From: a bacterium
GTDB lineage: Bacteria > Patescibacteriota > Minisyncoccia > UBA6257 > UBA9933
DNA length: 64,000 nt
NCBI GenBank assembly: GCA_021786355.1
Contig: JAJYNK010000009.1
Location: forward strand, 517 to 64,516
Reading direction: 5' to 3'
Made by a program: the position numbers and the translations under genes
Notes under the pieces: model-generated
The model's database searches: none
What the model was told of the DNA's origin: nothing
Seen by the model: the letters and a program-made list of their open reading frames with translations, nothing else
Part shown: in pieces, positions 3,193-56,601 of the stretch
How the letters are laid out: each line of letters opens with the position of its first letter
How positions within the stretch are numbered: the stretch's first letter is position 1

Positions 3193-3264
3193 GCGAGTGT
3201 AGCTCAGTGGTAGAGCACCGCCCTTATAAGACGGCCGTCGCAGGTTCGATCCCTGCCACTCGCA
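3193..3264 (+). tRNA. tRNA with anticodon UAU (Ile-AUA decoder)
   Basis: Hand-folded cloverleaf: acceptor GCGAGTG/CACTCGC, D arm GCTC-AGTGGTA-GAGC, anticodon loop CTTATAA, T arm GCAGG-TTCGATC-CCTGC. There is one C-A mismatch in the anticodon stem. No encoded CCA. Confidence 0.55.
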
Positions 3265-3288
3265 CTTTTTTTGTTATAATAAATACAT

Positions 3289-6336: not shown

Positions 6337-6621
6337 GTGCTGGATGTCTGGGTTTTTGAAACAGGTAGGAAACTCGGCAACCCGAACATGGTTCAGATAT
6401 GGACAGAAGGTGTTATTATACCCTTCCGTCACAAGAAACACTTCGGCCGTCGCATAATAACGGCCGGCGGCGTAAACGAAAGGTTCAAGCCGGGCGCACA
6501 TACCCGCGACACTCACAACTACTTTGTCGCGCCGGCTGCTTTTGCCTTGGCCTGCGACAAAGCTAAAGAGTATTTCCGAAGAAACCCCCCAGAAAAGAAA
6601 GGAGATTGGGTCCCCGCATAG
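6337..6621 (+). CDS. Hypothetical 94-aa protein in a higher-GC cassette
   Basis: AGGAGG RBS directly upstream (GTG at 6331 or ATG at 6337). Followed by a rho-independent terminator. Confidence 0.35.
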   Translation: MLDVWVFETGRKLGNPNMVQIWTEGVIIPFRHKKHFGRRIITAGGVNERFKPGAHTRDTHNYFVAPAAFALACDKAKEYFRRNPPEKKGDWVPA

Positions 6622-8294: not shown

Positions 8295-8873
8295 CTATCT
8301 TTTACTTAAAAATTTTAATGCCGTTCTTATTCTTTCTTCCGGTTTTTCAATTTTTGAAGAAATGGATTTTACGGCTTCTTTTACTTCGTTTTGCCTATAA
8401 CCCATTCTTTTGAGCGCTTCGGAAATATCAACGTCGATTTCCAGCATAGAAATAATTTCTTCGCTTTCTTTAACCGCTATTTTGTCTTTTAATTCCAAAA
8501 TTATGCGCTCGGCGGTTTTTTTGCCGACTCCGGAAATTTTTGTAAGAAGGTCGGAGCGTTTTTTGTTTACGGCGGACATTAATTCTTCCGGTTTTATGAC
8601 TGATAAAATTTTCAAAGCCATTTTCGGACCGACGCCGGAAATCGAGGTCAGCATTTCAAAAACATCCATTTCGGTTTTATCGTAAAATCCGTAAAGCTCG
8701 ATTCCGTTTTGATTGACGTGAGTATGGCAAAAAATTTTCGCTTTGGAATTTATTTTCGGAAGTTTATTAATCGTCCGCTTCGAAACAAAAACCTTAAAGC
8801 CTATTCCGCTTGTTTCAATAATAATAAAAAGTTTGGTTTTGACGGTGAGCGTGCCTGAGAGGGAATAAATCAT
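8295..8873 (-). CDS. ruvA: Holliday junction branch-migration protein RuvA (start taken at MIYSLSG; the ORF track extends to 8930)
   Basis: Contains the SISGVGPKMALKIL and ISGVGKKTAERIILELKDK helix-hairpin-helix pairs and the N-terminal OB pattern LFIIIETSGIGFKVFVS. Confidence 0.8.
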   Translation of the reverse strand: MIYSLSGTLTVKTKLFIIIETSGIGFKVFVSKRTINKLPKINSKAKIFCHTHVNQNGIELYGFYDKTEMDVFEMLTSISGVGPKMALKILSVIKPEELMSAVNKKRSDLLTKISGVGKKTAERIILELKDKIAVKESEEIISMLEIDVDISEALKRMGYRQNEVKEAVKSISSKIEKPEERIRTALKFLSKR

Positions 8874-8995
8874 TATGGATAGTATAAAATACAAAGCAAA
8901 AATTATAAAGGGAGGAAAATTGACAAACAAATTGGTTTTCTTTAGTCTATAGAAAGATATTAGAAAATAAATTAGGAATCAGGGGGGGGTGGACT

Positions 8996-9571
8996 ATGAA
9001 ACAGAGTCAGAAGAACCAAGAACTGAAAGACACGATTGAAATATTAGCGTTTAAAGGACTCGACTTCGGACTGGCGGTTTCGCTGCTTTACAACGCAAAA
9101 ATTATCTCCCAAGATTTTATTGATAGGCTTGAATTCGATCAATTAGTCAAAATTTACCGAGCAAATATTTATTCAGGTCACAAAATATTTATTTTGGACT
9201 TAATGGAAAAACGCGCTTCTGATTTTTGGCACTGGAAAACGATTTTTGACCTTACTCCGCGAGACGAATCAACCATTTCCACCTGCAAAAACCGTGATGA
9301 AATAATTTCCAAAATGAAAAAGGCGGCGATGGATGACTTTGATAAATTATACACGCTGTTTAAATTACTGGATGTATGTTATTATGAACTCCGTGACAAT
9401 ATCAGACGAGTCAAAAAAGAAGTGGAGGATAAAATTTGTCGCGATATTCAACTGACATTTAGTCAGTGCGTACAAATTCTAAACTCCGCCGACCCGAATA
9501 GTAATTTATATACTAAAGCATTTCAAGAAATCTCGGTTTATATATTGGATGAATTCAGACAAAAAACCTGA
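8996..9571 (+). CDS. Hypothetical protein (191 aa)
   Basis: ORF preceded by a G8 tract (AGGGGGGGGTGGACT ATG). A rho-independent terminator lies downstream. Confidence 0.45.
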   Translation: MKQSQKNQELKDTIEILAFKGLDFGLAVSLLYNAKIISQDFIDRLEFDQLVKIYRANIYSGHKIFILDLMEKRASDFWHWKTIFDLTPRDESTISTCKNRDEIISKMKKAAMDDFDKLYTLFKLLDVCYYELRDNIRRVKKEVEDKICRDIQLTFSQCVQILNSADPNSNLYTKAFQEISVYILDEFRQKT

Positions 9572-9584
9572 TTTTCTAAGACGA

Positions 9585-9616
9585 AATGCTATTGGTTGGC
9601 CGGAGCCTTGCTCCGG
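9585..9616 (+). terminator. Rho-independent terminator GGCCGGAGC-CTTG-CTCCGGCC followed by T6
   Basis: Seen directly, downstream of the 8996 ORF. Confidence 0.7.
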
Positions 9617-9654
9617 CCATTTTTTATTATTCATAAGTTTTTATAAATAAATCG

Positions 9655-9690
9655 TTGACAATTAATCTCTTATATAATAAGATGACGAAC
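9655..9690 (+). promoter_or_regulatory. Putative promoter for rpsT (TTGACA -35 with an AT-rich TATATAATAAG -10 region)
   Basis: TTGACA at 9655-9660. Several -10 candidates follow at 12-17 nt. Start codon at 9711. Confidence 0.35.
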
Positions 9691-9710
9691 ATAAACAAAT
9701 TTTAATTTAC

Positions 9711-9965
9711 ATGCCAAGAACAAAATCAGCAAAAAAAGCTTTAAGACAAAGCGAGCGGAAAAGAAAAATAAACGCGAAAAGAAAACTTGATTTGAGAAAA
9801 GTTCTCAAGGAATATAAAAATCTCCTTGAAACCAAGGACAAAGAAAAAGCGAAGGAACAGTTGAAAACCGTTTATAAAAAATTGGACAAGGCCGCGAAAG
9901 TTAAAATAATAGCAAAAAACAGAGCGGCCCGGCTCAAATCCCGCTTAACTAAAAAACTCGCCTAA
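9711..9965 (+). CDS. rpsT: 30S ribosomal protein S20
   Basis: MPRTKSAKKALRQSERKR...AARLKSRL is a typical S20 sequence. Confidence 0.9.
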   Translation: MPRTKSAKKALRQSERKRKINAKRKLDLRKVLKEYKNLLETKDKEKAKEQLKTVYKKLDKAAKVKIIAKNRAARLKSRLTKKLA

Positions 9966-14239: not shown

Positions 14240-14263
14240 CGTTGTATAGTATACTATACAACG
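14240..14263. repeat. Palindrome CGTTGTATAGTATACTATACAACG, one of five copies of the TATAGTATACTATA-core palindrome
   Basis: Other copies at 16889-16912, 32445-32466, 43175-43200 (inside a CDS) and 54896-54923. Confidence 0.85.
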
Positions 14264-14952: not shown

Positions 14953-15669
14953 ATGGCAGAAGAAAAGAAAGCTGATTTCAGCGCCGGAGAAGTTGGAAAA
15001 GAGCTCGGGATAACGGCAGGAGGTATTGCTGTTTTTGAACTCCTCAGAAAAGCCTGGGGGCTTATGAAGGTGGGGTCAAGAACCGCTGCCGCTGAAGTCA
15101 TTCGCGAAGTCGGGAGCAAGGCGGCCGCGGAAACGGCCAAAAAAGTGCAGGCGAAGATGAGCGATCATTACCGCGCCAAACTTCTTGTTTTTCTACAGAA
15201 GATGGAGTCTTCAACGGAACCGAGGCAGCAGAGCGCGGCAAAAACCATCAGAAAGAGGCAAGAGGACCGACAGTTTTGCCGGCCCCGGTCTTATTCTGAC
15301 GGCGGAAATTATCGACCCGGCGAAGAAAACCTTCTCGTGAATTGCCTCGGAAAAGTTCTAATACTCAAAGAACCTGAGAAAGAAGTAGCGGCAGAGGCGG
15401 CGGCGACAGAAAAAGAAACCATCAATTTCTTCGTCTGGCTCGGCGAACTCCCGCCTCAAGAATTCGACAGCGCGATTGAGTTTCTCAACCATGACATAGT
15501 TATGCAGTGGTTAAGAATGCTCGGCATTCGTTTCAACGAAATATTCGGTATCGTCGGTTCAGAACTACGTCCTTTCAACGATAAATGGGTTAAGTGGCTC
15601 AACAATCGCCGCACAGCACGCGGTCGGAGGACTGTAGAATATCAAAAGGAGGGCCCTCCTCATGCGTGA
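14953..15669 (+). CDS. Hypothetical protein (238 aa) in a higher-GC island
   Basis: GC visibly higher than the backbone. The stop overlaps the next start (ATGCGTGA), which suggests translational coupling. Confidence 0.5.
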   Translation: MAEEKKADFSAGEVGKELGITAGGIAVFELLRKAWGLMKVGSRTAAAEVIREVGSKAAAETAKKVQAKMSDHYRAKLLVFLQKMESSTEPRQQSAAKTIRKRQEDRQFCRPRSYSDGGNYRPGEENLLVNCLGKVLILKEPEKEVAAEAAATEKETINFFVWLGELPPQEFDSAIEFLNHDIVMQWLRMLGIRFNEIFGIVGSELRPFNDKWVKWLNNRRTARGRRTVEYQKEGPPHA

Positions 15670-16612
15670 AACTCTTAGTGAAATACTCCTAACGCTGCGG
15701 CTCATTCTCGACACAGTCATCACCGGCGCCGCGGACGCCGCCGAGGTCCTTGCCTTTGTCAGGGGCGAAAACAGAACCGATCTTGAAATATATCGGATCG
15801 GACTTTCACGGCTCGCGATTGCAGCGGCGCTTCTGCCTATACCAATCCTGCTTCTGGGAATTTTCGGATTCTCGATGTGGATTTCAATTGCGGGACTTAT
15901 TTGGGCGTTCTTCACGATCTTACTCTCTTTGCTGGCCGCGCCGATTGCGTTGATAATCGACGCGGTCTGGCACAGAACAACAGTAGGACTTGGAGAACGT
16001 TATGTTCGATTAACGCTACATGTTATTTTCGCCGAGTTATCGTTCGCAATAATGCTTATAGTCATTCCTATCGAGAAAAGACCTGAGTTGATCCCGTTGC
16101 TACTGCTCTTGGCCCTTATCATTTTTATTGGGACTCGTCTTTTTGGGGGCGCTTTCATCTTTAACGGAAGGGCAATAACGGTTGTTGCATCAATGATTTT
16201 CATCGCAATCGTCATTTCGTTGTTTCTCCCCCGCACAACGGCTCTCGCGAGAACCGCGGCGAGAGGAATCGATAATAATGTCGTTGCAGTATTTTCCTTA
16301 AATTCTCCTACGAAACCAACGGAAATAGGAACCAACCAGAAAATCCTCGTTGGGATGGAATTCCCGATCAAGCCAGGGGAGGATAATTATCTCTTCGCAA
16401 CTTCGGTCAAGGGAAAACGAACCGAGTACAAGTTGGAGGCCAACCAGCCCATCATCATTCGCTCAGCCCAACCCGACGGTTCTTTAAGGGATTTTCGACT
16501 GGGACCCGGAAGGTTTGGCTGGGAGGTTTTAAGAGATCAACAGGCTGGGCAGCTTCGGGTGCGAAGCGAACAGCCTGCGGTTCTCCGAATTATTGACGTG
16601 AACGAAAGTTGA
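15662..16612 (+). CDS. Polytopic membrane protein (about 6 TM helices) with a C-terminal soluble domain, in a higher-GC island
   Basis: Long hydrophobic stretches (LLLGIFGFSMWISIAGLIWAFFTILLSLLAAPIALII, LLLLLALIIFIGTRLFGGAFIF, VVASMIFIAIVISLF) followed by a 110-aa hydrophilic tail. Confidence 0.5.
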   Translation: MRETLSEILLTLRLILDTVITGAADAAEVLAFVRGENRTDLEIYRIGLSRLAIAAALLPIPILLLGIFGFSMWISIAGLIWAFFTILLSLLAAPIALIIDAVWHRTTVGLGERYVRLTLHVIFAELSFAIMLIVIPIEKRPELIPLLLLLALIIFIGTRLFGGAFIFNGRAITVVASMIFIAIVISLFLPRTTALARTAARGIDNNVVAVFSLNSPTKPTEIGTNQKILVGMEFPIKPGEDNYLFATSVKGKRTEYKLEANQPIIIRSAQPDGSLRDFRLGPGRFGWEVLRDQQAGQLRVRSEQPAVLRIIDVNES

Positions 16613-16793: not shown

Positions 16794-17029
16794 ATTTATT
16801 ACAGTTTCATACGAATTATAAATACACACGGATTGGTGCGTATAAAAAAATAAAATAGTTTGCAAAATTAATTCGGAAATAAATTTTTAGTGGTATAGTA
16901 TACTATACCACTTAACCGTTTTATATCGCATATAAAAATTATTTATTGTAAGAATATTGATTATAGGAAAAATAATAAAAAACACCCCAGTAAATCGGAG
17001 TGTTTTTTTAAATCACTAAATAAATAAAT

Positions 17030-32374: not shown

Positions 32375-32497
32375 TGGGTTATTTTAGCATTTAAGATCGG
32401 CGCGCGAAAGCACTATTTTATAATTAATCAAAATTCTGCGCCGCGCACTATAGTATACTATAGTGCCATCAGCTAATCCAGGGTTGTCTTCGCTTAA

Positions 32498-38283: not shown

Positions 38284-39495
38284 ATGAAGCTCAAGTTTGA
38301 CGAAGAGCGAGCGCTCGCGGTATTCCAAGCGCTCGAAAAACCGTACGTCGACGAAAGCGGAATTTACAAAACAGCTACTTTACCCCAAAACCGTTTCCAA
38401 CCAGAGGTGGGAGCACGCGAATACGCAAATTGGCTCTTCTTCCTGTCTCTGTTCGAAAGAGGCGGAATAGTAAGCGGCGACACTATGAAGTTCTTGTGGC
38501 AACTTCACCAGGATCTGCCTGAACTCTACGAGCCCCAAATTGTATCCACCAGCTGGACCCCGCAAAAGATTGAGGATGCATTTAAGACGGTCGCACCCAA
38601 AATCCTCAATGGCAACGGTACCGGTGAAGTCGGCGCAGGTTCCTTAAGCTACAAGCTCAGCGAACACACCGCCGCCTGGTACCGCAACGCGGTCACGCTC
38701 CACAAACACTGGGGTGGCGACATCCGCAATGTTTTCTGGGGCGTCACAGAATTCGAAGAGTCTTTCCGTAGGGTGGATTATCATAACAACCCGGCTGGCT
38801 TCAATGGCATGAGGCGTAAGATTTTTTCCCTATTGGTTATCTGGCTACAGGAAAAAAACTTCATCCCTCTTTTCCCTGGACCTATTCCGGTGGACTTCCA
38901 TGCTATGCGGGTCCTCTGGGAAACAGACATTCTTCGGCTTAACGGTTTCGCCAAACCATTCGAACCCAAGGAAGGAAAACACAGCCCGGCTCTCGCAGGC
39001 AAAATCTCAATGCGCGTCAGCGAGAAATTTATGGATACTATTGCAAAATGGTCCCAAAAATTTCTCCTGAAACACAAAATGAGTCATATGGTTATCAACC
39101 CGGCCCTGTGGCTGCTCTCTCGCGATCTTTGCGCGGAGCAGTTTCAAAACATCACCTTTGCCCAGAAAGCTGAAAATTCAATGGCGCCCGGCAATGAAAG
39201 CGCAGTGCCAAAAACCGGTTCTCGCATGCGTCATTTCCGCAAAGCAAAAGAGGCTATGCGCTTCACCGAGGCGGAAGATCTGCGCCAGAACCACGCTTTA
39301 TGGTCCGCCGGCTACAAGGATCCCTGCGGCCACTGTCCTATTGAAAAGTGGTGTTCGTGGTCCATACCGGCTGCCCCTTATTACACTTGGGGCATCATGG
39401 TTCGTTCCGGTCCCCGCGTTCCCTACCATTCTCCGCTGATTCCTGGAATGTTATGCCCTTCCAGCTATCAATCCCGTAAACGTTCACGCAAGTAG
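38284..39495 (+). CDS. Hypothetical 403-aa protein, clearly higher GC than the backbone
   Basis: GGAGGG RBS. No family recognised. Has a C-terminal Cys cluster (CGHCPIEKWC). Confidence 0.5.
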   Translation: MKLKFDEERALAVFQALEKPYVDESGIYKTATLPQNRFQPEVGAREYANWLFFLSLFERGGIVSGDTMKFLWQLHQDLPELYEPQIVSTSWTPQKIEDAFKTVAPKILNGNGTGEVGAGSLSYKLSEHTAAWYRNAVTLHKHWGGDIRNVFWGVTEFEESFRRVDYHNNPAGFNGMRRKIFSLLVIWLQEKNFIPLFPGPIPVDFHAMRVLWETDILRLNGFAKPFEPKEGKHSPALAGKISMRVSEKFMDTIAKWSQKFLLKHKMSHMVINPALWLLSRDLCAEQFQNITFAQKAENSMAPGNESAVPKTGSRMRHFRKAKEAMRFTEAEDLRQNHALWSAGYKDPCGHCPIEKWCSWSIPAAPYYTWGIMVRSGPRVPYHSPLIPGMLCPSSYQSRKRSRK

Positions 39496-39528
39496 CCCCG
39501 CTGTTTTTCCAGGCGGGGCGTTTTTTTA
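39496..39528 (+). terminator. Rho-independent terminator CCCCGC-(11-nt loop)-GCGGGG followed by CG and T7
   Basis: Directly after the stop at 39493-39495. Confidence 0.7.
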
Positions 39529-39666
39529 CCCCCACACCAAAGAAAGATCTAAATTTTTTCGAAGTCAAAAATATTTAAGAAATAACAGTAATTATTTAAC
39601 AAAACAATATAAAAAACCACTAACAAAGAAATTTAATCGCTTCGCAATCTTTCTTTGGTGAGGGGG
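39529..39666. repeat. Hairpin repeat, family C copy 2 (CCCCCACACCAAAGAAAGAT ... ATCTTTCTTTGGTGAGGGGG, one A-A mismatch) enclosing about 98 nt of AT-rich DNA
   Basis: Same CCCCCACACCAAA terminus as the copy at 5966. The inner stem differs but stays complementary. Confidence 0.8.
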
Positions 39667-39786
39667 TTTATTAACACCTTACGAACAAAATCTCTTGCTT
39701 TAAAACGCCGATTACTGATAATATGCCTTTAGAACACTGCTAATTTAAAATTCTGAGCTTATATAAAATTTGAGGAGGTGTTTGGG

Positions 39787-40803
39787 ATGAAGAAAATCGG
39801 TCCGATTCCATTAGAACAACTTGTCAAAGACGATGTTAACCGAGTAATCCAACATGCTTCAATAATTATTTCGCTCACGCCCGAAGGACCTATGATTTTC
39901 GCCAACCCGAAGCCGACGTTAAATGTACTGGCGGTTATTGGACCCGGAATAGGAACTCCTTTTAAACGCTTTTTTGAACGAGCCCTGCTTTTGGAAGTGG
40001 GCATTGGAGTTGGACGGCCTTACCACGAAGCAAAAAGTTCGATTGAAAAAACATCCAGCGGCAAGCCAAAAAGCATCCCAAAACGCCGTAAATGGTTTCG
40101 TCTTACCGAACAGCAATATATCCAGGTGGCTTCGTGGATTTTCCCCTGTTTGCAAGAAATCACCAACCAGAAAGTAGCGAATTGGAAATGCAATCATGAA
40201 AGTCCGTTTTTTATTCCGACTTCCCGCCACTACTTTTCTCGCCATCAAAAAACCCTTTTCATCGAAGAGGGGTACAAATCGTGGCCGCGGGGGACGCGCT
40301 TTGCCGTATCGCTTGAAGACCGCTTCTTGCTCTCCGATATTTACTGGGCGGAAAAACACAACCCCGACTTGCGCCGGCGCCTGAAAGGTCTCGCTAAATT
40401 TATAGATCTGCGGCTTAATTTCTCCGGCGCCAAAAAAACAAAAAGTCGTCCTCGCAAAGAATTCCGGGAGCTAAAACGTTTTGTACAAGTTGCCGGAATA
40501 CTTGAGAAACGCAACTTGCCGGTCCGGCACATTGTTGACCTCCTTGATTTTCTGCCGCTGAAAAATGGTCGCAGCCGCAGCCTGTATTACTACGAGATTT
40601 CTCACTTACTCGGCTATACCGGCGAAGAATTTAGGGAGGAAAAATTCGTCCATCAGGCATTGGCCAACCCGAGCCAACGACTCAACGGCATTAAGCTCCG
40701 AATCACTACTGGCCTCTCATGCCGGGACCATATTGTTTTTGAAATATCCACCAATCTCCCCGTGGGAGAAGAGATGCCTCTTCCCGCGCCTGTCCCCAAA
40801 TAG
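39787..40803 (+). CDS. Hypothetical protein (about 339 aa from ATG 39787; the ORF track starts at GTG 39778)
   Basis: GAGGAGG RBS 8 nt upstream of ATG 39787. Basic, moderately GC-rich. No family recognised. Confidence 0.5.
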   Translation: MKKIGPIPLEQLVKDDVNRVIQHASIIISLTPEGPMIFANPKPTLNVLAVIGPGIGTPFKRFFERALLLEVGIGVGRPYHEAKSSIEKTSSGKPKSIPKRRKWFRLTEQQYIQVASWIFPCLQEITNQKVANWKCNHESPFFIPTSRHYFSRHQKTLFIEEGYKSWPRGTRFAVSLEDRFLLSDIYWAEKHNPDLRRRLKGLAKFIDLRLNFSGAKKTKSRPRKEFRELKRFVQVAGILEKRNLPVRHIVDLLDFLPLKNGRSRSLYYYEISHLLGYTGEEFREEKFVHQALANPSQRLNGIKLRITTGLSCRDHIVFEISTNLPVGEEMPLPAPVPK

Positions 40804-42729: not shown

Positions 42730-43563
42730 TTACTTCGGTTTTATAACTATAAATCTTTTCTTCCACCCTTTTTTAAATTCCTCTGTTGTGGCTTTTCTCT
42801 CAATAAGATTTGGATTGTTTATGTCGGGATCGGCGAATAAAACAATGTCGCCGTCTATCCCAAAAATAACCACCAAATGTCCGCCGTTTTGCGGATTTAG
42901 ATTCTTATATATGGAAGCTATGACCGGCCCGTTTTTTAACTCTTCAATCATTCGTTCAAAAGCGGTTTCCGTTTCTTCTTTCGCGAAATCAAATCTATTG
43001 CCCCTTAAACCAAAGTGTTTTACTGCGGCGTCTATTAATCCTTGATGCAGCCACCCTATGTTTTCTACATAAGCTTTGTTTTTGACCCCGTCGGAAATTA
43101 TAAAGTCAACTAAAAATTCGGAAAGTTTTTTCATCTTATCTTCGTCTACGTTTTTTGTCGGCCAAGCTCTTTCCAAGTGGTATAGTATACTATACCACTT
43201 GACTGAGTCGTGTTCGTCTAATAATTCGTTGAGTTTGTTTGTTTCGTTGCTTATCCAGTTTGCGTCATTTACGCTAGAAATAATCTTTGAATCTTTTAAA
43301 AGTTTTTTAATCGCTTTAACTACGTTTGGATCTTTTTTTGAAACACAATAAATCACAATCATCGCCAAAGAAGCGGGACCGCAGACTCTTTTTGCCCAAA
43401 ATTCGTTGCAGCCGTCGCCTTCGCAAAGCCCCTGTCCGTCCGGCAGGCGGGCATACCCGCTTTTGCCGATATCCAAATGCTGAGAAATGTTAACCGGAAG
43501 ATGGTGGCGAATTAAGAATTTTTTTTCCCGTCTTTTGTCCTGTTTTTTATTTATCGTATTCAT
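42730..43563 (-). CDS. Papain-like cysteine peptidase, C39-like family (Peptidase_C39_2-like)
   Basis: Cys box RVCGPASLAMIVIY and a C-terminal GGHLVVIFGIDGDIVLFADPD His/Asp region. The CDS contains a 26-bp perfect palindrome encoding KWYSILYHL. Confidence 0.5.
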   Translation of the reverse strand: MNTINKKQDKRREKKFLIRHHLPVNISQHLDIGKSGYARLPDGQGLCEGDGCNEFWAKRVCGPASLAMIVIYCVSKKDPNVVKAIKKLLKDSKIISSVNDANWISNETNKLNELLDEHDSVKWYSILYHLERAWPTKNVDEDKMKKLSEFLVDFIISDGVKNKAYVENIGWLHQGLIDAAVKHFGLRGNRFDFAKEETETAFERMIEELKNGPVIASIYKNLNPQNGGHLVVIFGIDGDIVLFADPDINNPNLIERKATTEEFKKGWKKRFIVIKPK

Positions 43564-53268: not shown

Positions 53269-53538
53269 TTATTCTAAATTGCCGTCGCTGTATTCTTTTA
53301 AATAAGAATCGTCGACCGGAGGTTGGTAATTATCTTCAGAATCGCCTAAAAGATCATCATCGGTTTTCCGGGGCGACTTTTTAGCTTTTTCCGGGTCATG
53401 TTCTTCTTCTCCGGCGGAATCAAGAACGTCATCTTCTTTGCCTTGCGGTTCTATATCCGCTTCTAGTTCGTCGATTGAAAATGAAGACATTGTAAATTTT
53501 ACAAAAAACGACCTTTCTTTGCGCCGAATAAATATCAA
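53269..53538 (-). CDS. Small highly acidic hypothetical protein (possibly starting at MSSFSIDEL, 53490)
   Basis: ORF with a strongly Asp/Glu-rich composition. Confidence 0.35.
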   Translation of the reverse strand: MIFIRRKERSFFVKFTMSSFSIDELEADIEPQGKEDDVLDSAGEEEHDPEKAKKSPRKTDDDLLGDSEDNYQPPVDDSYLKEYSDGNLE

Positions 53539-54276: not shown

Positions 54277-54810
54277 TTATTTTAAGTCCGTGTTCGTTAC
54301 TATATTTTGTACATCATCGTGATTTTCTAGCGCTTCGATTAAAAAGTTTAATTTTTCTTTTCCGGCAGAAGTTGTTTCGTTTTTGAATTTCGCTGAATAG
54401 CCTTCGGCGGTTTTTTTAAAAGCCCATACAACGCTTCCCGGATCGGCCCACTTGGCTTCGTGGTCGGATAAAATTTTTTTAGTTTCCGCAACGGTCCGGT
54501 TTTTGCTGTCGGTGATGGCTTCTATTAAAATCGCGACGCCCTCCGGTCCGTAGGCCTCCATAATCAATTCTTCTAAATTGTCGGATTTTTCCGAAGCGCG
54601 TTTAATGGCTTTTTCAATATTGTCTTGCGGAACGTTGTTTTGTTTTGCTTTGTCGATCGCAGAACGAAGTGTCGGGTTGAATTGAGGATTGGGTTCTTTT
54701 TTGGCGGTAATAGTAACAACGTTTAAAAGTTTGGAAAACAAGGCGCCGCGTTTTTTATCGGTTGTTTCTTTTTTACGTTTTATTCCCGACCAGTGGGAGT
54801 GACCAGACAT
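54277..54810 (-). CDS. yebC: YebC/PmpR family transcriptional regulator (start at MSGHSHW; the ORF track extension to 54891 is rejected)
   Basis: MSGHSHWSGIKRKKETTDKKRGALFSKL matches the YebC N-terminus. Classic yebC-ruvC linkage. Confidence 0.8.
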   Translation of the reverse strand: MSGHSHWSGIKRKKETTDKKRGALFSKLLNVVTITAKKEPNPQFNPTLRSAIDKAKQNNVPQDNIEKAIKRASEKSDNLEELIMEAYGPEGVAILIEAITDSKNRTVAETKKILSDHEAKWADPGSVVWAFKKTAEGYSAKFKNETTSAGKEKLNFLIEALENHDDVQNIVTNTDLK

Positions 54811-55015
54811 GGTTGGTTGATTAGTTAATTGGTTAGCTGGCAAGAAGAGACAAGATAATAATAGAATAGAAACTAAGGAGATAAAAGTCAAAACCTAAGT
54901 TGTATAGTATACTATACAACTTAAACTTTCTTTTTTAGAGAATAATTTGTGTGTAAAAAACAGCCCGTTGGCGAAACGCCGCGGGGCTGGTGCAAAGAGC
55001 GAGAAAATCAGATGT

Positions 55016-55345
55016 TCAGGCGGTTTTGGAAAATTCCGAGGCGGGGTAGAAGGCGTAGAGTTGCATAATTTCGATGTCGATTTTGAGAGGCATCAATGCC
55101 TCTGCAATATCGTCCGCCCGACTGGTGTCTGTGTCGCAGATGCGGAGAAACGGCACGCGTTTCCCTTCAAGGTTGTGGCAATAACTGTCGTGAACTGTGA
55201 TAATCACATCCTTGGCAAAAGGGAAACGTTTCAGAATTTTTATGGCCGCGTTTTTAAGACGGGATTCTTCGATCAAGTTATGATGGGTGGTTTCACCGGC
55301 CATTCCGTATTTCCTACTCCAACCGTGAATCTCGATGTTCGGCAT
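55016..55345 (-). CDS. Hypothetical 109-aa protein beginning Met-Pro (possible tautomerase-superfamily-like), in a higher-GC block
   Basis: Starts MPNIEIHGW. Length and Pro1 are reminiscent of tautomerase/MIF folds. Weak call. Confidence 0.3.
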   Translation of the reverse strand: MPNIEIHGWSRKYGMAGETTHHNLIEESRLKNAAIKILKRFPFAKDVIITVHDSYCHNLEGKRVPFLRICDTDTSRADDIAEALMPLKIDIEIMQLYAFYPASEFSKTA

Positions 55346-55366
55346 AACGTCTCCTTTTAGTATGGG

Positions 55367-55816
55367 TTATCGATCGGATAGGTAAAATATTTGTGGTTGG
55401 CCGTCGAGGTGGATGTAAAAATTGAAAGTCCGTATCGTGTCCCAACTTCCGTAATATTGCGTCAAACGCTCAACACGCACTCGAACGGTGTGTTTCGCAA
55501 TGTCTTCGCGCCCTGAGTTTATGGGAAACGCAAAGCACTTCGATTTACCCGGAGGTAGATAAAATTTATATCGGTCATCAATCGTAATGTGAAGTTTGCG
55601 ATCTGTTGCGCTTGTAAAAGTTACAAGAGAAGGATCGCCGGCCACGGAATAGAAAGGATCGTCGGCTTTGATTGTCTGAAGAGGCGGATGAGTCGGTTCT
55701 ATTTGCGACGGATATTTTTTTATGACAAGCTGGGGGATTTCGGTTGCCGCGCATTCCGCGACTACTACGAGTAAAATGAAACAGAAAAACAGAGCGCAGG
55801 TTTTTGGAAGTTTCAT
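55367..55816 (-). CDS. Secreted hypothetical protein (signal peptide) in a higher-GC block
   Basis: MKLPKTCALFFCFILLVVVAECAA signal peptide. Confidence 0.45.
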   Translation of the reverse strand: MKLPKTCALFFCFILLVVVAECAATEIPQLVIKKYPSQIEPTHPPLQTIKADDPFYSVAGDPSLVTFTSATDRKLHITIDDRYKFYLPPGKSKCFAFPINSGREDIAKHTVRVRVERLTQYYGSWDTIRTFNFYIHLDGQPQIFYLSDR

Positions 55817-56376
55817 CGGAATAAGCTCCTTACGAAGTTCACGGCATCAGTTGCTATTCCGGTTGTTTGAATGTCTACAGTAGGCGATTGATAGTCGTAT
55901 TGCGGGATGTCGCCGGTGTAAATACTTACGCCCCAACCCCAATCTTTCCGCGTGTATTGGCGGTCGGAAAAGGCGCGCGGATCATTTCCAACCCAAACTC
56001 CGGCAGTGTATCGGTAAAGAGAAATGAGTTTGCGACTGGCCGGAAATATATAGTTCTGGTAGTAAAACGTTTCTATTTCCAATTTCCAACTGCCCTTGGG
56101 AAGAGCCGTAATATATACCCTTGTCGGAGCTCTGCCGTTGAAGGTGAGTGCCGGACTTTCGCCGCGGTCGCTCCATTCCATAAAGAGTTCGTTTGTGGTG
56201 GCGTTGATGAATTTGATTGTGCACGATGCCGCGCCTTCCAAAATCACCACGCCTTTTGCGGGGTCGGTGTTGAACTTGGGCCACATTTCGGCCTGGTTTA
56301 TCGGACGCGTGCCGGCGCACCCCAAAACAACTACCAGAAATCCTAAAATAAGCGCTTTTTTCGTCCTGGTTTTCAT
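55813..56376 (-). CDS. Putative lipoprotein (signal peptide with lipobox LGCAG) in a higher-GC block
   Basis: MKTRTKKALILGFLVVVLGCAGT. G-rich RBS AGAGGGGGGTG upstream. 4-nt overlap with the next gene. Confidence 0.45.
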   Translation of the reverse strand: MKTRTKKALILGFLVVVLGCAGTRPINQAEMWPKFNTDPAKGVVILEGAASCTIKFINATTNELFMEWSDRGESPALTFNGRAPTRVYITALPKGSWKLEIETFYYQNYIFPASRKLISLYRYTAGVWVGNDPRAFSDRQYTRKDWGWGVSIYTGDIPQYDYQSPTVDIQTTGIATDAVNFVRSLFR

Positions 56377-56572
56377 TTCGCACCCCCCTCTTTTGTCTTC
56401 TTTGTGATTTTCCAGCGTTTTTCAAATCATTTTCAGGCTATGTAAAGTTGGGAAAGACCAAAATTATTACCATACAATATCAAAAACACAATAATTTGTC
56501 AATTATAGGTGTTTTGATTTAAGAAAGAAAAGGAAAGGGAAAATTAAAAAATTTTTTGAGATTTAGTCAATT

Positions 56573-56601
56573 TTGATTTTAATTTTTTTAACACCTATAA
56601 T
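56573..56601 (+). promoter_or_regulatory. Sigma70-type promoter TTGATT-N17-TATAAT upstream of dnaE
   Basis: -35 at 56573-56578, -10 at 56596-56601, exact 17-nt spacer. Hairpin H5 starts about 12 nt downstream. Confidence 0.55.

Follow-up and report, generated by a model that had tools for sequence, protein, structure and literature searches.

Enzymes of the tautomerase superfamily are recognised by two hallmarks, a beta-alpha-beta unit and a catalytic N-terminal proline (Pro-1); monomers in which two units are fused form trimers, and a second proline frequently starts the second unit (PMC5818174). Here we describe three consecutive genes between yebC and dnaE in a stretch of bacterial DNA of 64,000 nucleotides (nt) from contig JAJYNK010000009.1 of assembly GCA_021786355.1; this whole 64-kb stretch is called the window below. 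The nearest described systems to gene 3 are the two-unit tautomerases CHMI (PDB 3e6q, 1otg), fused 4-OT (6blm, 6vvw), cis-CaaD/Cg10062, MSAD and MIF/D-DT. In contrast to these, gene 3 has no detectable sequence similarity to superfamily members in Pfam or the PDB and carries a signature of its own. DUF1904 (PDB 4m1a, 108 amino acids, aa) and VC0714 (1u9d) are structural-genomics proteins with a tautomerase fold that are 9-14% identical to the gene 3 protein, and none of 61 gene 3 family members matches the Pfam model of DUF1904. The first two genes resemble coupled bacterial lipoprotein pairs in the lipobox signal peptides of gene 1 and of most gene 2 orthologues, their ATGA overlap and the membrane-surface complex that we predict as probable; they differ in that both proteins are orphans, with a fold (a C2-like sandwich) known at low confidence. 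Polymorphic toxin-immunity cassettes share with this locus the arrangement of exported proteins followed by a small cytoplasmic protein, as well as fast evolution, whereas the present locus has no such domains, a conserved C-terminus, separable parts and a fixed chromosomal site.

We established the gene structure, conservation, synteny, composition and evolutionary rates of the locus, together with the fold class and the Pro-1 signature of its third product. The locus is an ordinary, wholly uncharacterised, lineage-specific envelope operon, and its noteworthy by-product is a tautomerase-like protein family. With slightly better than even confidence in the explanation as a whole, we regard the three genes as a real operon of a Wolfebacteria-type bacterium of the candidate phyla radiation (CPR): a clade-restricted, vertically inherited envelope operon that includes a tautomerase-like gene. 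An earlier interpretation made from the letters of the DNA, here called the sequence-only reading, had proposed three minus-strand genes, a 4-nt overlap of the first two, a G6 Shine-Dalgarno run and a dnaE promoter at the far boundary. Its gene coordinates agree exactly with the list of open reading frames (ORFs), the overlap and the G6 run are both present, and a promoter-like site lies on the dnaE side. The features of the operon are:

55813-56376, minus strand: gene 1, lipoprotein, 187 aa, starting MKTRTKKALILGFLVVVLGCAG (ORF list and homologues)
55367-55816, minus strand: gene 2, exported protein, 149 aa, with a hydrophobic N-terminus (ORF list and homologues)
55016-55345, minus strand: gene 3, small protein, 109 aa, starting MPNIEIHGW (ORF list and homologues)
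55813-55816, minus strand: ATGA overlap of genes 1 and 2, 4 nt (read from the sequence)
56383-56388, minus strand: G6 Shine-Dalgarno run, 6 nt 5' of the gene 1 ATG (read from the sequence)
56474-56502, minus strand: promoter-like site of the cassette, TTGACA, 17 nt, TATTGT, with a TG extension (10 of 12 consensus positions; a consensus match only)
56573-56601: dnaE-side promoter-like site (consensus scan)
54955-54989, minus strand: predicted intrinsic terminator at the end of the cassette, GC-rich hairpin (54961-54989), then U6 (54955-54960)

The minus strand is settled as the coding strand, because all three proteins have homologues and the ratios of nonsynonymous to synonymous substitution rates (dN/dS) against a close strain are 0.08-0.39. 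An antisense ORF of 137 aa (54947-55360) was rejected as spurious, since only the minus-strand product has homologues and purifying selection acts on it. Packing is tight and the Shine-Dalgarno sites are strong: that of gene 2 (AGGAG) lies within the last codons of gene 1, while gene 3, which starts 21 nt after the gene 2 stop, has its own site (AAGGAGA). The promoter-like site of the cassette sits in an AT-rich spacer of 380 nt that is shared with the divergent dnaE. At the other end, the terminator hairpin (-18.4 kcal/mol, z -2.7) lies 27 nt past the gene 3 stop, and comparable hairpins are found 3' of the last cassette gene in the homologous loci L009, L013 and L020 of related bacteria. A single promoter in the spacer beside dnaE would thus give a tricistronic mRNA that ends at the hairpin and U6 terminator, and these signals suggest co-transcription of all three genes.

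Three NCBI assemblies, GCA_027330945.1, GCA_027423095.1 and GCA_027423035.1, and several metagenomes contain identical copies of the region. Among named species representatives, Candidatus Wolfebacteria bacterium S40-20 (locus L018) is the nearest, with a YebC that is 88% and a DnaE that is 90% identical to those of the window. Among 5.8 billion proteins, homologues of gene 3 formed eight clusters and those of gene 2 five (the window's own cluster included in both cases), and gene 1 had four; for genes 1 and 2 the copies in L018 and L020 come in addition to these four to five clusters. Every recovered copy with flanking genes on its contig occupies the same place, between dnaE and yebC (L001-L017, L018). 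In L020, where YebC is only 65% identical, a divergent lipoprotein pair stands directly 5' of yebC, without gene 3 and without an adjacent dnaE.

Gene content varies among these relatives. All three genes are present in the window, L009-L013 and L015-L017; L007 and L099 carry genes 1 and 3 with a clean loss of gene 2; and L018 carries genes 1 and 2 without gene 3. More distant Patescibacteria retain the block yebC-ruvC-PBP1a (PBP, penicillin-binding protein) with unrelated genes upstream, and a search of the window for paralogues of the three genes gave none. From this pattern we conclude that the lipoprotein pair is the older core of the locus. Judged by the loci compared, the pair is restricted to one clade, and gene 3 is a later addition to the operon in one sub-clade. 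Followed into relatives, the locus is conserved in the clade at a fixed site, with variable gene content, and it is absent from the more distant Patescibacteria examined.

Gene 3 belongs to a much larger family than its close homologues suggest. A profile of the eight close homologues gave 418 matches at an E value of 1e-3 or better, each of them the representative of a 50%-identity cluster, with a median length of 98 aa and nearly all aligned from residue 1. A Met-Pro start was found in 130 of 149 family representatives, and the motif MPN[IV]E[ILV][HY] in 111 of the 149. Within the close homologues, MP is invariant in the seven full-length proteins, whereas the eighth, P0008, is without its N-terminus. 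Alignments of 61 and of 132 sequences share the same near-invariant positions, P2, N3, E5, G8, P65, R68, D90 and E92, with P2 conserved to at least 90% in both; the other most-conserved positions are M1, I4, V48, L84 and F99, and overall column identity is 16-27%. The signature of the family comprises MPNIEIHG, PFLR and D-x-E. Source databases label its members only as 'hypothetical protein'. The gene 3 protein contains no hydrophobic segment, and by its sequence it is a small cytoplasmic protein.

The structural model of gene 3 has strands (E) and helices (H) in the order E-H-E-E-H-E, i.e. two beta-alpha-beta units, at a predicted local distance difference test score (pLDDT) of 67.7. The top 50 Foldseek matches all belong to the tautomerase superfamily except for three chains of designed cages (8t6e, 4nwr), with E values from 2e-3 and probabilities up to 0.99. 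A second fold-search method likewise ranked superfamily members first, and the matches include MIF, MSAD, DUF1904 and VC0714. Moreover, P65 of gene 3 corresponds to the proline that starts the second unit in the superfamily. The modelled fold and the conserved Pro-1 make it fairly probable, in our judgement, that the gene 3 family is a new, sequence-isolated subgroup of the tautomerase superfamily. Its window member would most likely be a trimeric enzyme, recruited to the operon, in which Pro-1 would act as general base or acid towards a small substrate.

The wider family occurs in other settings. In 80 metagenomic loci and two further contigs, family members lie among varied housekeeping and orphan genes on low-GC contigs, and the neighbours of distant members include L21, GltX, RecR, UppS, GatB, MiaA and RNase HII. 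So far, the family has been seen only on low-GC contigs, and the named ones among these are Patescibacteria. Homologues of the lipoproteins near family members were found only in close relatives of the window, and since distant members have none nearby, the association with lipoproteins is specific to this sub-clade. Hence, the link of gene 3 to the lipoproteins is probably one of co-expression rather than obligate partnership. A more far-reaching proposal, which we put forward tentatively and judge rather doubtful at present, is that MPNIEIHG proteins are Pro-1 enzymes with a new substrate and that the Wolfebacteria copy was wired into a hypervariable surface-lipoprotein operon.

The first two genes encode the exported pair. 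We scored lipoboxes with a PROSITE-style rule (PS51257-style) that combines the pattern [LVI][ASTVI][GAS]C with a positively charged n-region and a hydrophobic core. The signal peptide of gene 1 ends in VLG at the lipobox before Cys20, and reads MKTRTKKALILGFLVVVLG up to this cysteine. Gene 1 of the window and five of its six orthologues pass the rule, as the sequence-only reading had anticipated in calling it a lipoprotein, and the cysteine is aligned in five of the six, with L018 offset by one column. In gene 2 the lipobox is canonical (LAG or LGG before the cysteine) in four of seven orthologues and the cysteine is invariant; the residue preceding it is Glu in the window copy (VAE) and Lys in the close strain P0014. 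The hydrophobic N-terminus and the lipobox in most orthologues bear out the description of gene 2 as a secreted protein, while lipidation of the window copy is uncertain on this pattern.

The body of gene 1 is a predicted beta-sandwich (pLDDT 51.5) that ends in a conserved tail:

55816-55914, minus strand: conserved C-terminal tail of gene 1, residues 155-187, GDIPQYDYQSPTVDIQTTGIATDAVNFVRSLFR (orthologue alignment)

These 33 residues hardly change among orthologues with overall identities of 57-94%, including those that are otherwise 57-70% identical. Synonymous changes are frequent there: in the last 30 alignment columns 26 residues are invariant, yet only seven of them keep one and the same codon. 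Because the codons vary while the residues hold, the constraint is on the peptide and not on the DNA. The tail is partly retained in L018 (PTVDIQGTG), is lost in L020, and persists in L007, which is without protein 2. Its conservation suggests that it is probably a docking peptide for protein 2 or for another conserved partner, and its retention in L007 favours a partner other than protein 2.

In the mechanism that we propose, gene 1 would be exported and lipid-anchored at Cys20, with the beta-sandwich body and the constrained C-terminal tail following. Gene 2, translationally coupled to gene 1 through ATGA, would be exported as well; with its degenerate lipobox, the window copy is probably either processed by signal peptidase I or left anchored through the uncleaved signal peptide. 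Most likely the two proteins would assemble, in roughly stoichiometric amounts, into a complex on the outside of the cytoplasmic membrane that serves as a fast-evolving surface module; their lipidation, complex formation and surface role are predictions. The term 'surface module', as used in the sequence-only reading, is plausible for the operon.

The cassette evolves much faster than the genes around it. Amino acid identities among the window, L007, L009 and L018 (for the small protein, L013 replaces L018) were:

Flanking proteins: DnaE 85-91%, YebC 82-88%
Lipoprotein (gene 1): 42-71%
Middle protein (gene 2): 30-66%
Small protein (gene 3): 49-70%

The outlier is L018 (positions 8815-9806 in S40-20), where the flanking proteins, at about 90% identity, are as near to the window as those of any other lineage, yet the lipoprotein is 42% and the middle protein 30% identical and gene 3 is absent. 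This looks like an exchange for a very divergent allele, or like a burst of divergence, with the locus itself staying in place. Gene histories are also incongruent: the small protein of L013 is the closest to that of the window (70%), while its lipoprotein is 58% identical, with only L018 and L020 lower. In the comparison with the close strain (L182 and L183; synonymous rate dS 0.27-0.60), identity drops along the operon, from 94% in gene 1 to 85% in gene 2 and 67% in gene 3, and dN/dS rises from 0.08 to 0.28 and 0.39, respectively. The dN of the cassette genes is 2 to 9 times that of dnaE. Since dN/dS is below 1, indicating purifying selection, all three genes are functional. The fast, mosaic-looking divergence fits recombination at a variable surface locus; in the two exported proteins, whose surroundings remain syntenic, it agrees with a surface-exposed module on which hosts or phages exert pressure.

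Composition sets the cassette apart as well. Its GC content is 0.477, compared with a mean of 0.400 (standard deviation 0.049) for the 56 other ORFs of the window, in agreement with the higher GC noted in the sequence-only reading. For GC content at third codon positions (GC3), the same 56 ORFs have a mean of 0.401 (standard deviation 0.065), against 0.553 in gene 1 (z 2.3), 0.433 in gene 2 (z 0.5) and 0.582 in gene 3 (z 2.8). The shift in composition is genuine, though moderate in size; other ORFs of the window show it too, and gene 2 has a normal GC3. An excess in both GC and GC3 recurs in every orthologous cassette (L007, L009, L018 and L020, with cassette GC of 0.46-0.50 and locus GC of 0.38-0.41), so the excess is no indication of recent transfer. 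At least five related lineages share both the site and the GC excess, which implies that the cassette is old and vertically inherited, and the higher GC is an old, maintained property of its genes. The sequence-only reading had named core-genome status and normal GC3 as findings that would speak against it; the cassette is conserved in its clade and not core beyond it, and GC3 is abnormal in genes 1 and 3 and normal in gene 2.

Other ORFs of the window (at 14953-16612, 38284-40803 and 6337-6621) have a GC of 0.48-0.52, compared with 0.40 for the window, and are also without Pfam match. In this genome, higher GC seems to accompany lineage-specific orphan genes generally.

Several results count against our interpretation. 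In about 10% of the gene 3 family, position 2 is not Pro but Ser, Thr, Leu or Ala, and the scores of the fold matches are modest. Pfam and NCBIfam gave no match for gene 3, and no Pfam model matched its 61 relatives consistently. Profile searches of PDB sequences returned no tautomerase, and nothing relevant came from the PDB sequence and profile searches made with five alignments. Comparison of the 132-sequence profile with 4-OT and human MIF by hhalign was insignificant, with probabilities below 1%, even though the 4-OT alignment places MP..IH in register (E 0.11, not significant); nor did the N-terminal and C-terminal halves of the family align significantly with each other in hhalign. On the side of the exported pair, the poor model of the lipoprotein (pLDDT 51.5) makes the 'C2-like sandwich' weak, and gene 2 of the window does not pass the lipobox rule. 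Finally, the operon model leaves the persistent GC excess unexplained. The earlier remark that none of the genes has a recognisable family holds, as searches of Pfam, NCBIfam, PADLOC, PHROGs and PDB sequences were all without match; the family searches with all three proteins, and those of Pfam with their relatives, returned scattered sub-threshold noise only. A relationship of genes 1 and 2 as paralogues found no support in hhalign, which aligned their signal peptides only.

Other explanations of the locus were weighed against the same evidence. If gene 3 were not an enzyme, it could be a regulatory or scaffolding alpha/beta protein (DinI-like, KaiB/thioredoxin-like or a ring-building motif) in which Met-Pro serves stability or N-terminal processing. 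We consider this unlikely, because both fold searches put tautomerase-superfamily members first, almost exclusively, and because conservation in the family, low as its column identity is elsewhere, peaks in the eight N-terminal residues, which is what an active site built from Pro-1 and the first strand would predict. For the lipoprotein pair, linkage to the yebC-ruvC-PBP1a block raises the thought that it regulates peptidoglycan synthesis in the manner of LpoA/LpoB. The order pair, yebC, ruvC, small ORF and class A PBP is indeed kept from the window to L020, even without an adjacent dnaE, but the more distant Patescibacteria examined (L022-L026, L033, L045, L047) have the block without the pair, the cassette has its own predicted terminator, and no similarity to LpoA or LpoB was found; an LpoA/LpoB-like role is thus quite improbable.

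The higher GC could also be read as horizontally transferred DNA, with the cassette as a recently acquired genomic island inserted between yebC and dnaE. Its overall GC, the GC3 of genes 1 and 3 and the orphan status of its proteins agree with this, and so does the L018 allele, whose divergence relative to its flanks fits at least one allelic replacement by recombination. Yet position and GC excess are the same in five lineages, including the one with a YebC of 65% identity, and the foreign island implied by the sequence-only reading is not supported. ARAGORN found no tRNA within 12 kb of the cassette, no integrase or other mobile-element domain occurs among the genes called in the flanks of relatives (direct repeats were not searched for), and a scan of viral contigs with the family gave no relatives. 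The higher GC of the other Pfam-orphan ORFs further makes it look like a trait of lineage-specific genes here. A recent island is therefore very improbable, and for L018 allelic replacement by recombination within the clade is likely. Likewise very improbable is a toxin-immunity or polymorphic-toxin cassette, in which an exported toxin or delivery pair would be neutralised by the small cytoplasmic protein. This layout, proposed in the sequence-only reading, fits the order of two exported proteins and a small cytoplasmic one, the fast evolution and the variable gene content, and one of 61 family members has an isolated sub-threshold Imm-NTF2 match (E 0.0018). It fails on the details: Pfam, NCBIfam, PADLOC and PHROGs revealed no domain of toxins, immunity proteins or defence systems; the lipoprotein is most conserved at its C-terminus, the reverse of polymorphic toxins; and the parts are separable, with the pair lacking gene 3 in L018 and L020 and genes 1 and 3 lacking gene 2 in L007. 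Moreover, the gene 3 family is widespread without lipoproteins nearby, the locus keeps its chromosomal site and passes on vertically, and gene 3 combines a tautomerase-like fold with an N-terminal Pro that is invariant in the manner of an enzyme. The operon is neither a toxin-immunity cassette nor a recently acquired island.

The boundary with yebC contains a further element, the palindrome that the sequence-only reading had reported there, which is real and forms a stem of 12 pairs. Its positions are:

54897-54922, unstranded: palindrome AAGTTGTATAGTATACTATACAACTT (12-pair stem, 54896-54923)
14245-14258, 16894-16907, 32449-32462, 43181-43194 and 54903-54916: exact copies of its core TATAGTATACTATA

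Against an expectation of 0.01, the window contains five copies of the 14-nt core TATAGTATACTATA. Beyond the core, a further 4-6 complementary bases lengthen each copy, and these vary from one copy to the next (cgttg/caacg, agtgg/ccact, gcac/gtgc, aagttg/caactt); as the extensions differ and still pair, the stem is kept by compensatory changes. Four of the five copies are intergenic, just past the 3' ends of genes, and one lies inside the ORF 42730-43563. The relatives L007, L009-L011 and L015-L017 have the core TATAGTTAACTATA with the same arms (AGTTGTATAGTT and AACTATACAACT) in one to two copies upstream of yebC. A role of the palindrome as the cassette terminator was ruled out, as a canonical GC-rich terminator stands between it and gene 3. 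It lies beyond that terminator and abuts a -35-like hexamer upstream of yebC (54886-54891), and is hence more likely an element of yebC than of the cassette. It could serve as an operator for a global regulator, as an AT-rich terminator working in both directions or as an element resembling repetitive extragenic palindromes (REP-like). An Rfam scan of the region gave only a chance let-7 match on the palindrome.

Some neighbouring features were also recorded. The start of yebC is at 54810, according to the calls in the identical contigs, and not at an upstream TTG. Before the conserved start MSGHSHW, the yebC frame stays open over 27 more codons, as far back as the TTG at 54891 (54811-54891); this extension resembles a signal peptide, overlaps the promoter-like site, is not called in public contigs and is probably not translated. 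On the dnaE side, a 10-nt inverted repeat, TATAGGTGTT and AACACCTATA (56505-56514 and 56590-56599, 75 nt apart), flanks the dnaE promoter-like site and may be the 'hairpin H5' of the sequence-only reading. Between ruvC and the class A PBP lies a very acidic minus-strand ORF of 89 aa (53269-53538) without Pfam match in the window copy; a gene of 73-89 aa, matched here by position, is called at this place in all relatives. ARAGORN detected a tRNA-Ile with the anticodon UAU (tat) at 3193-3265. Such a tRNA is uncommon in bacteria, where AUA is usually decoded by a lysidine-modified CAU tRNA.

Genomes of the CPR, or Patescibacteria, are small and rich in unannotated genes, and their surface proteins are thought to mediate an episymbiotic lifestyle, although few have been characterised. 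Higher GC and the layout of a secreted pair plus a small protein do not mark a toxin cassette or a recent insertion in this locus. An orphan lipoprotein pair at a fixed site, with fast evolution and a strictly conserved C-terminal peptide, is instead a reasonable candidate for a host-interaction or phage-receptor module. If the gene 3 protein is indeed a Pro-1 enzyme with a new substrate in a surface-lipoprotein operon, this would hint at the making or modification of a small molecule tied to the cell envelope or to the interface between episymbiont and host. The gene 3 family is sizeable, lies outside Pfam and NCBIfam, and has two hallmarks of the tautomerase superfamily, the fold and Pro-1, without a sequence link. 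If confirmed, it would extend the tautomerase superfamily and would be among the few candidate small-molecule enzymes widely common to these reduced organisms.

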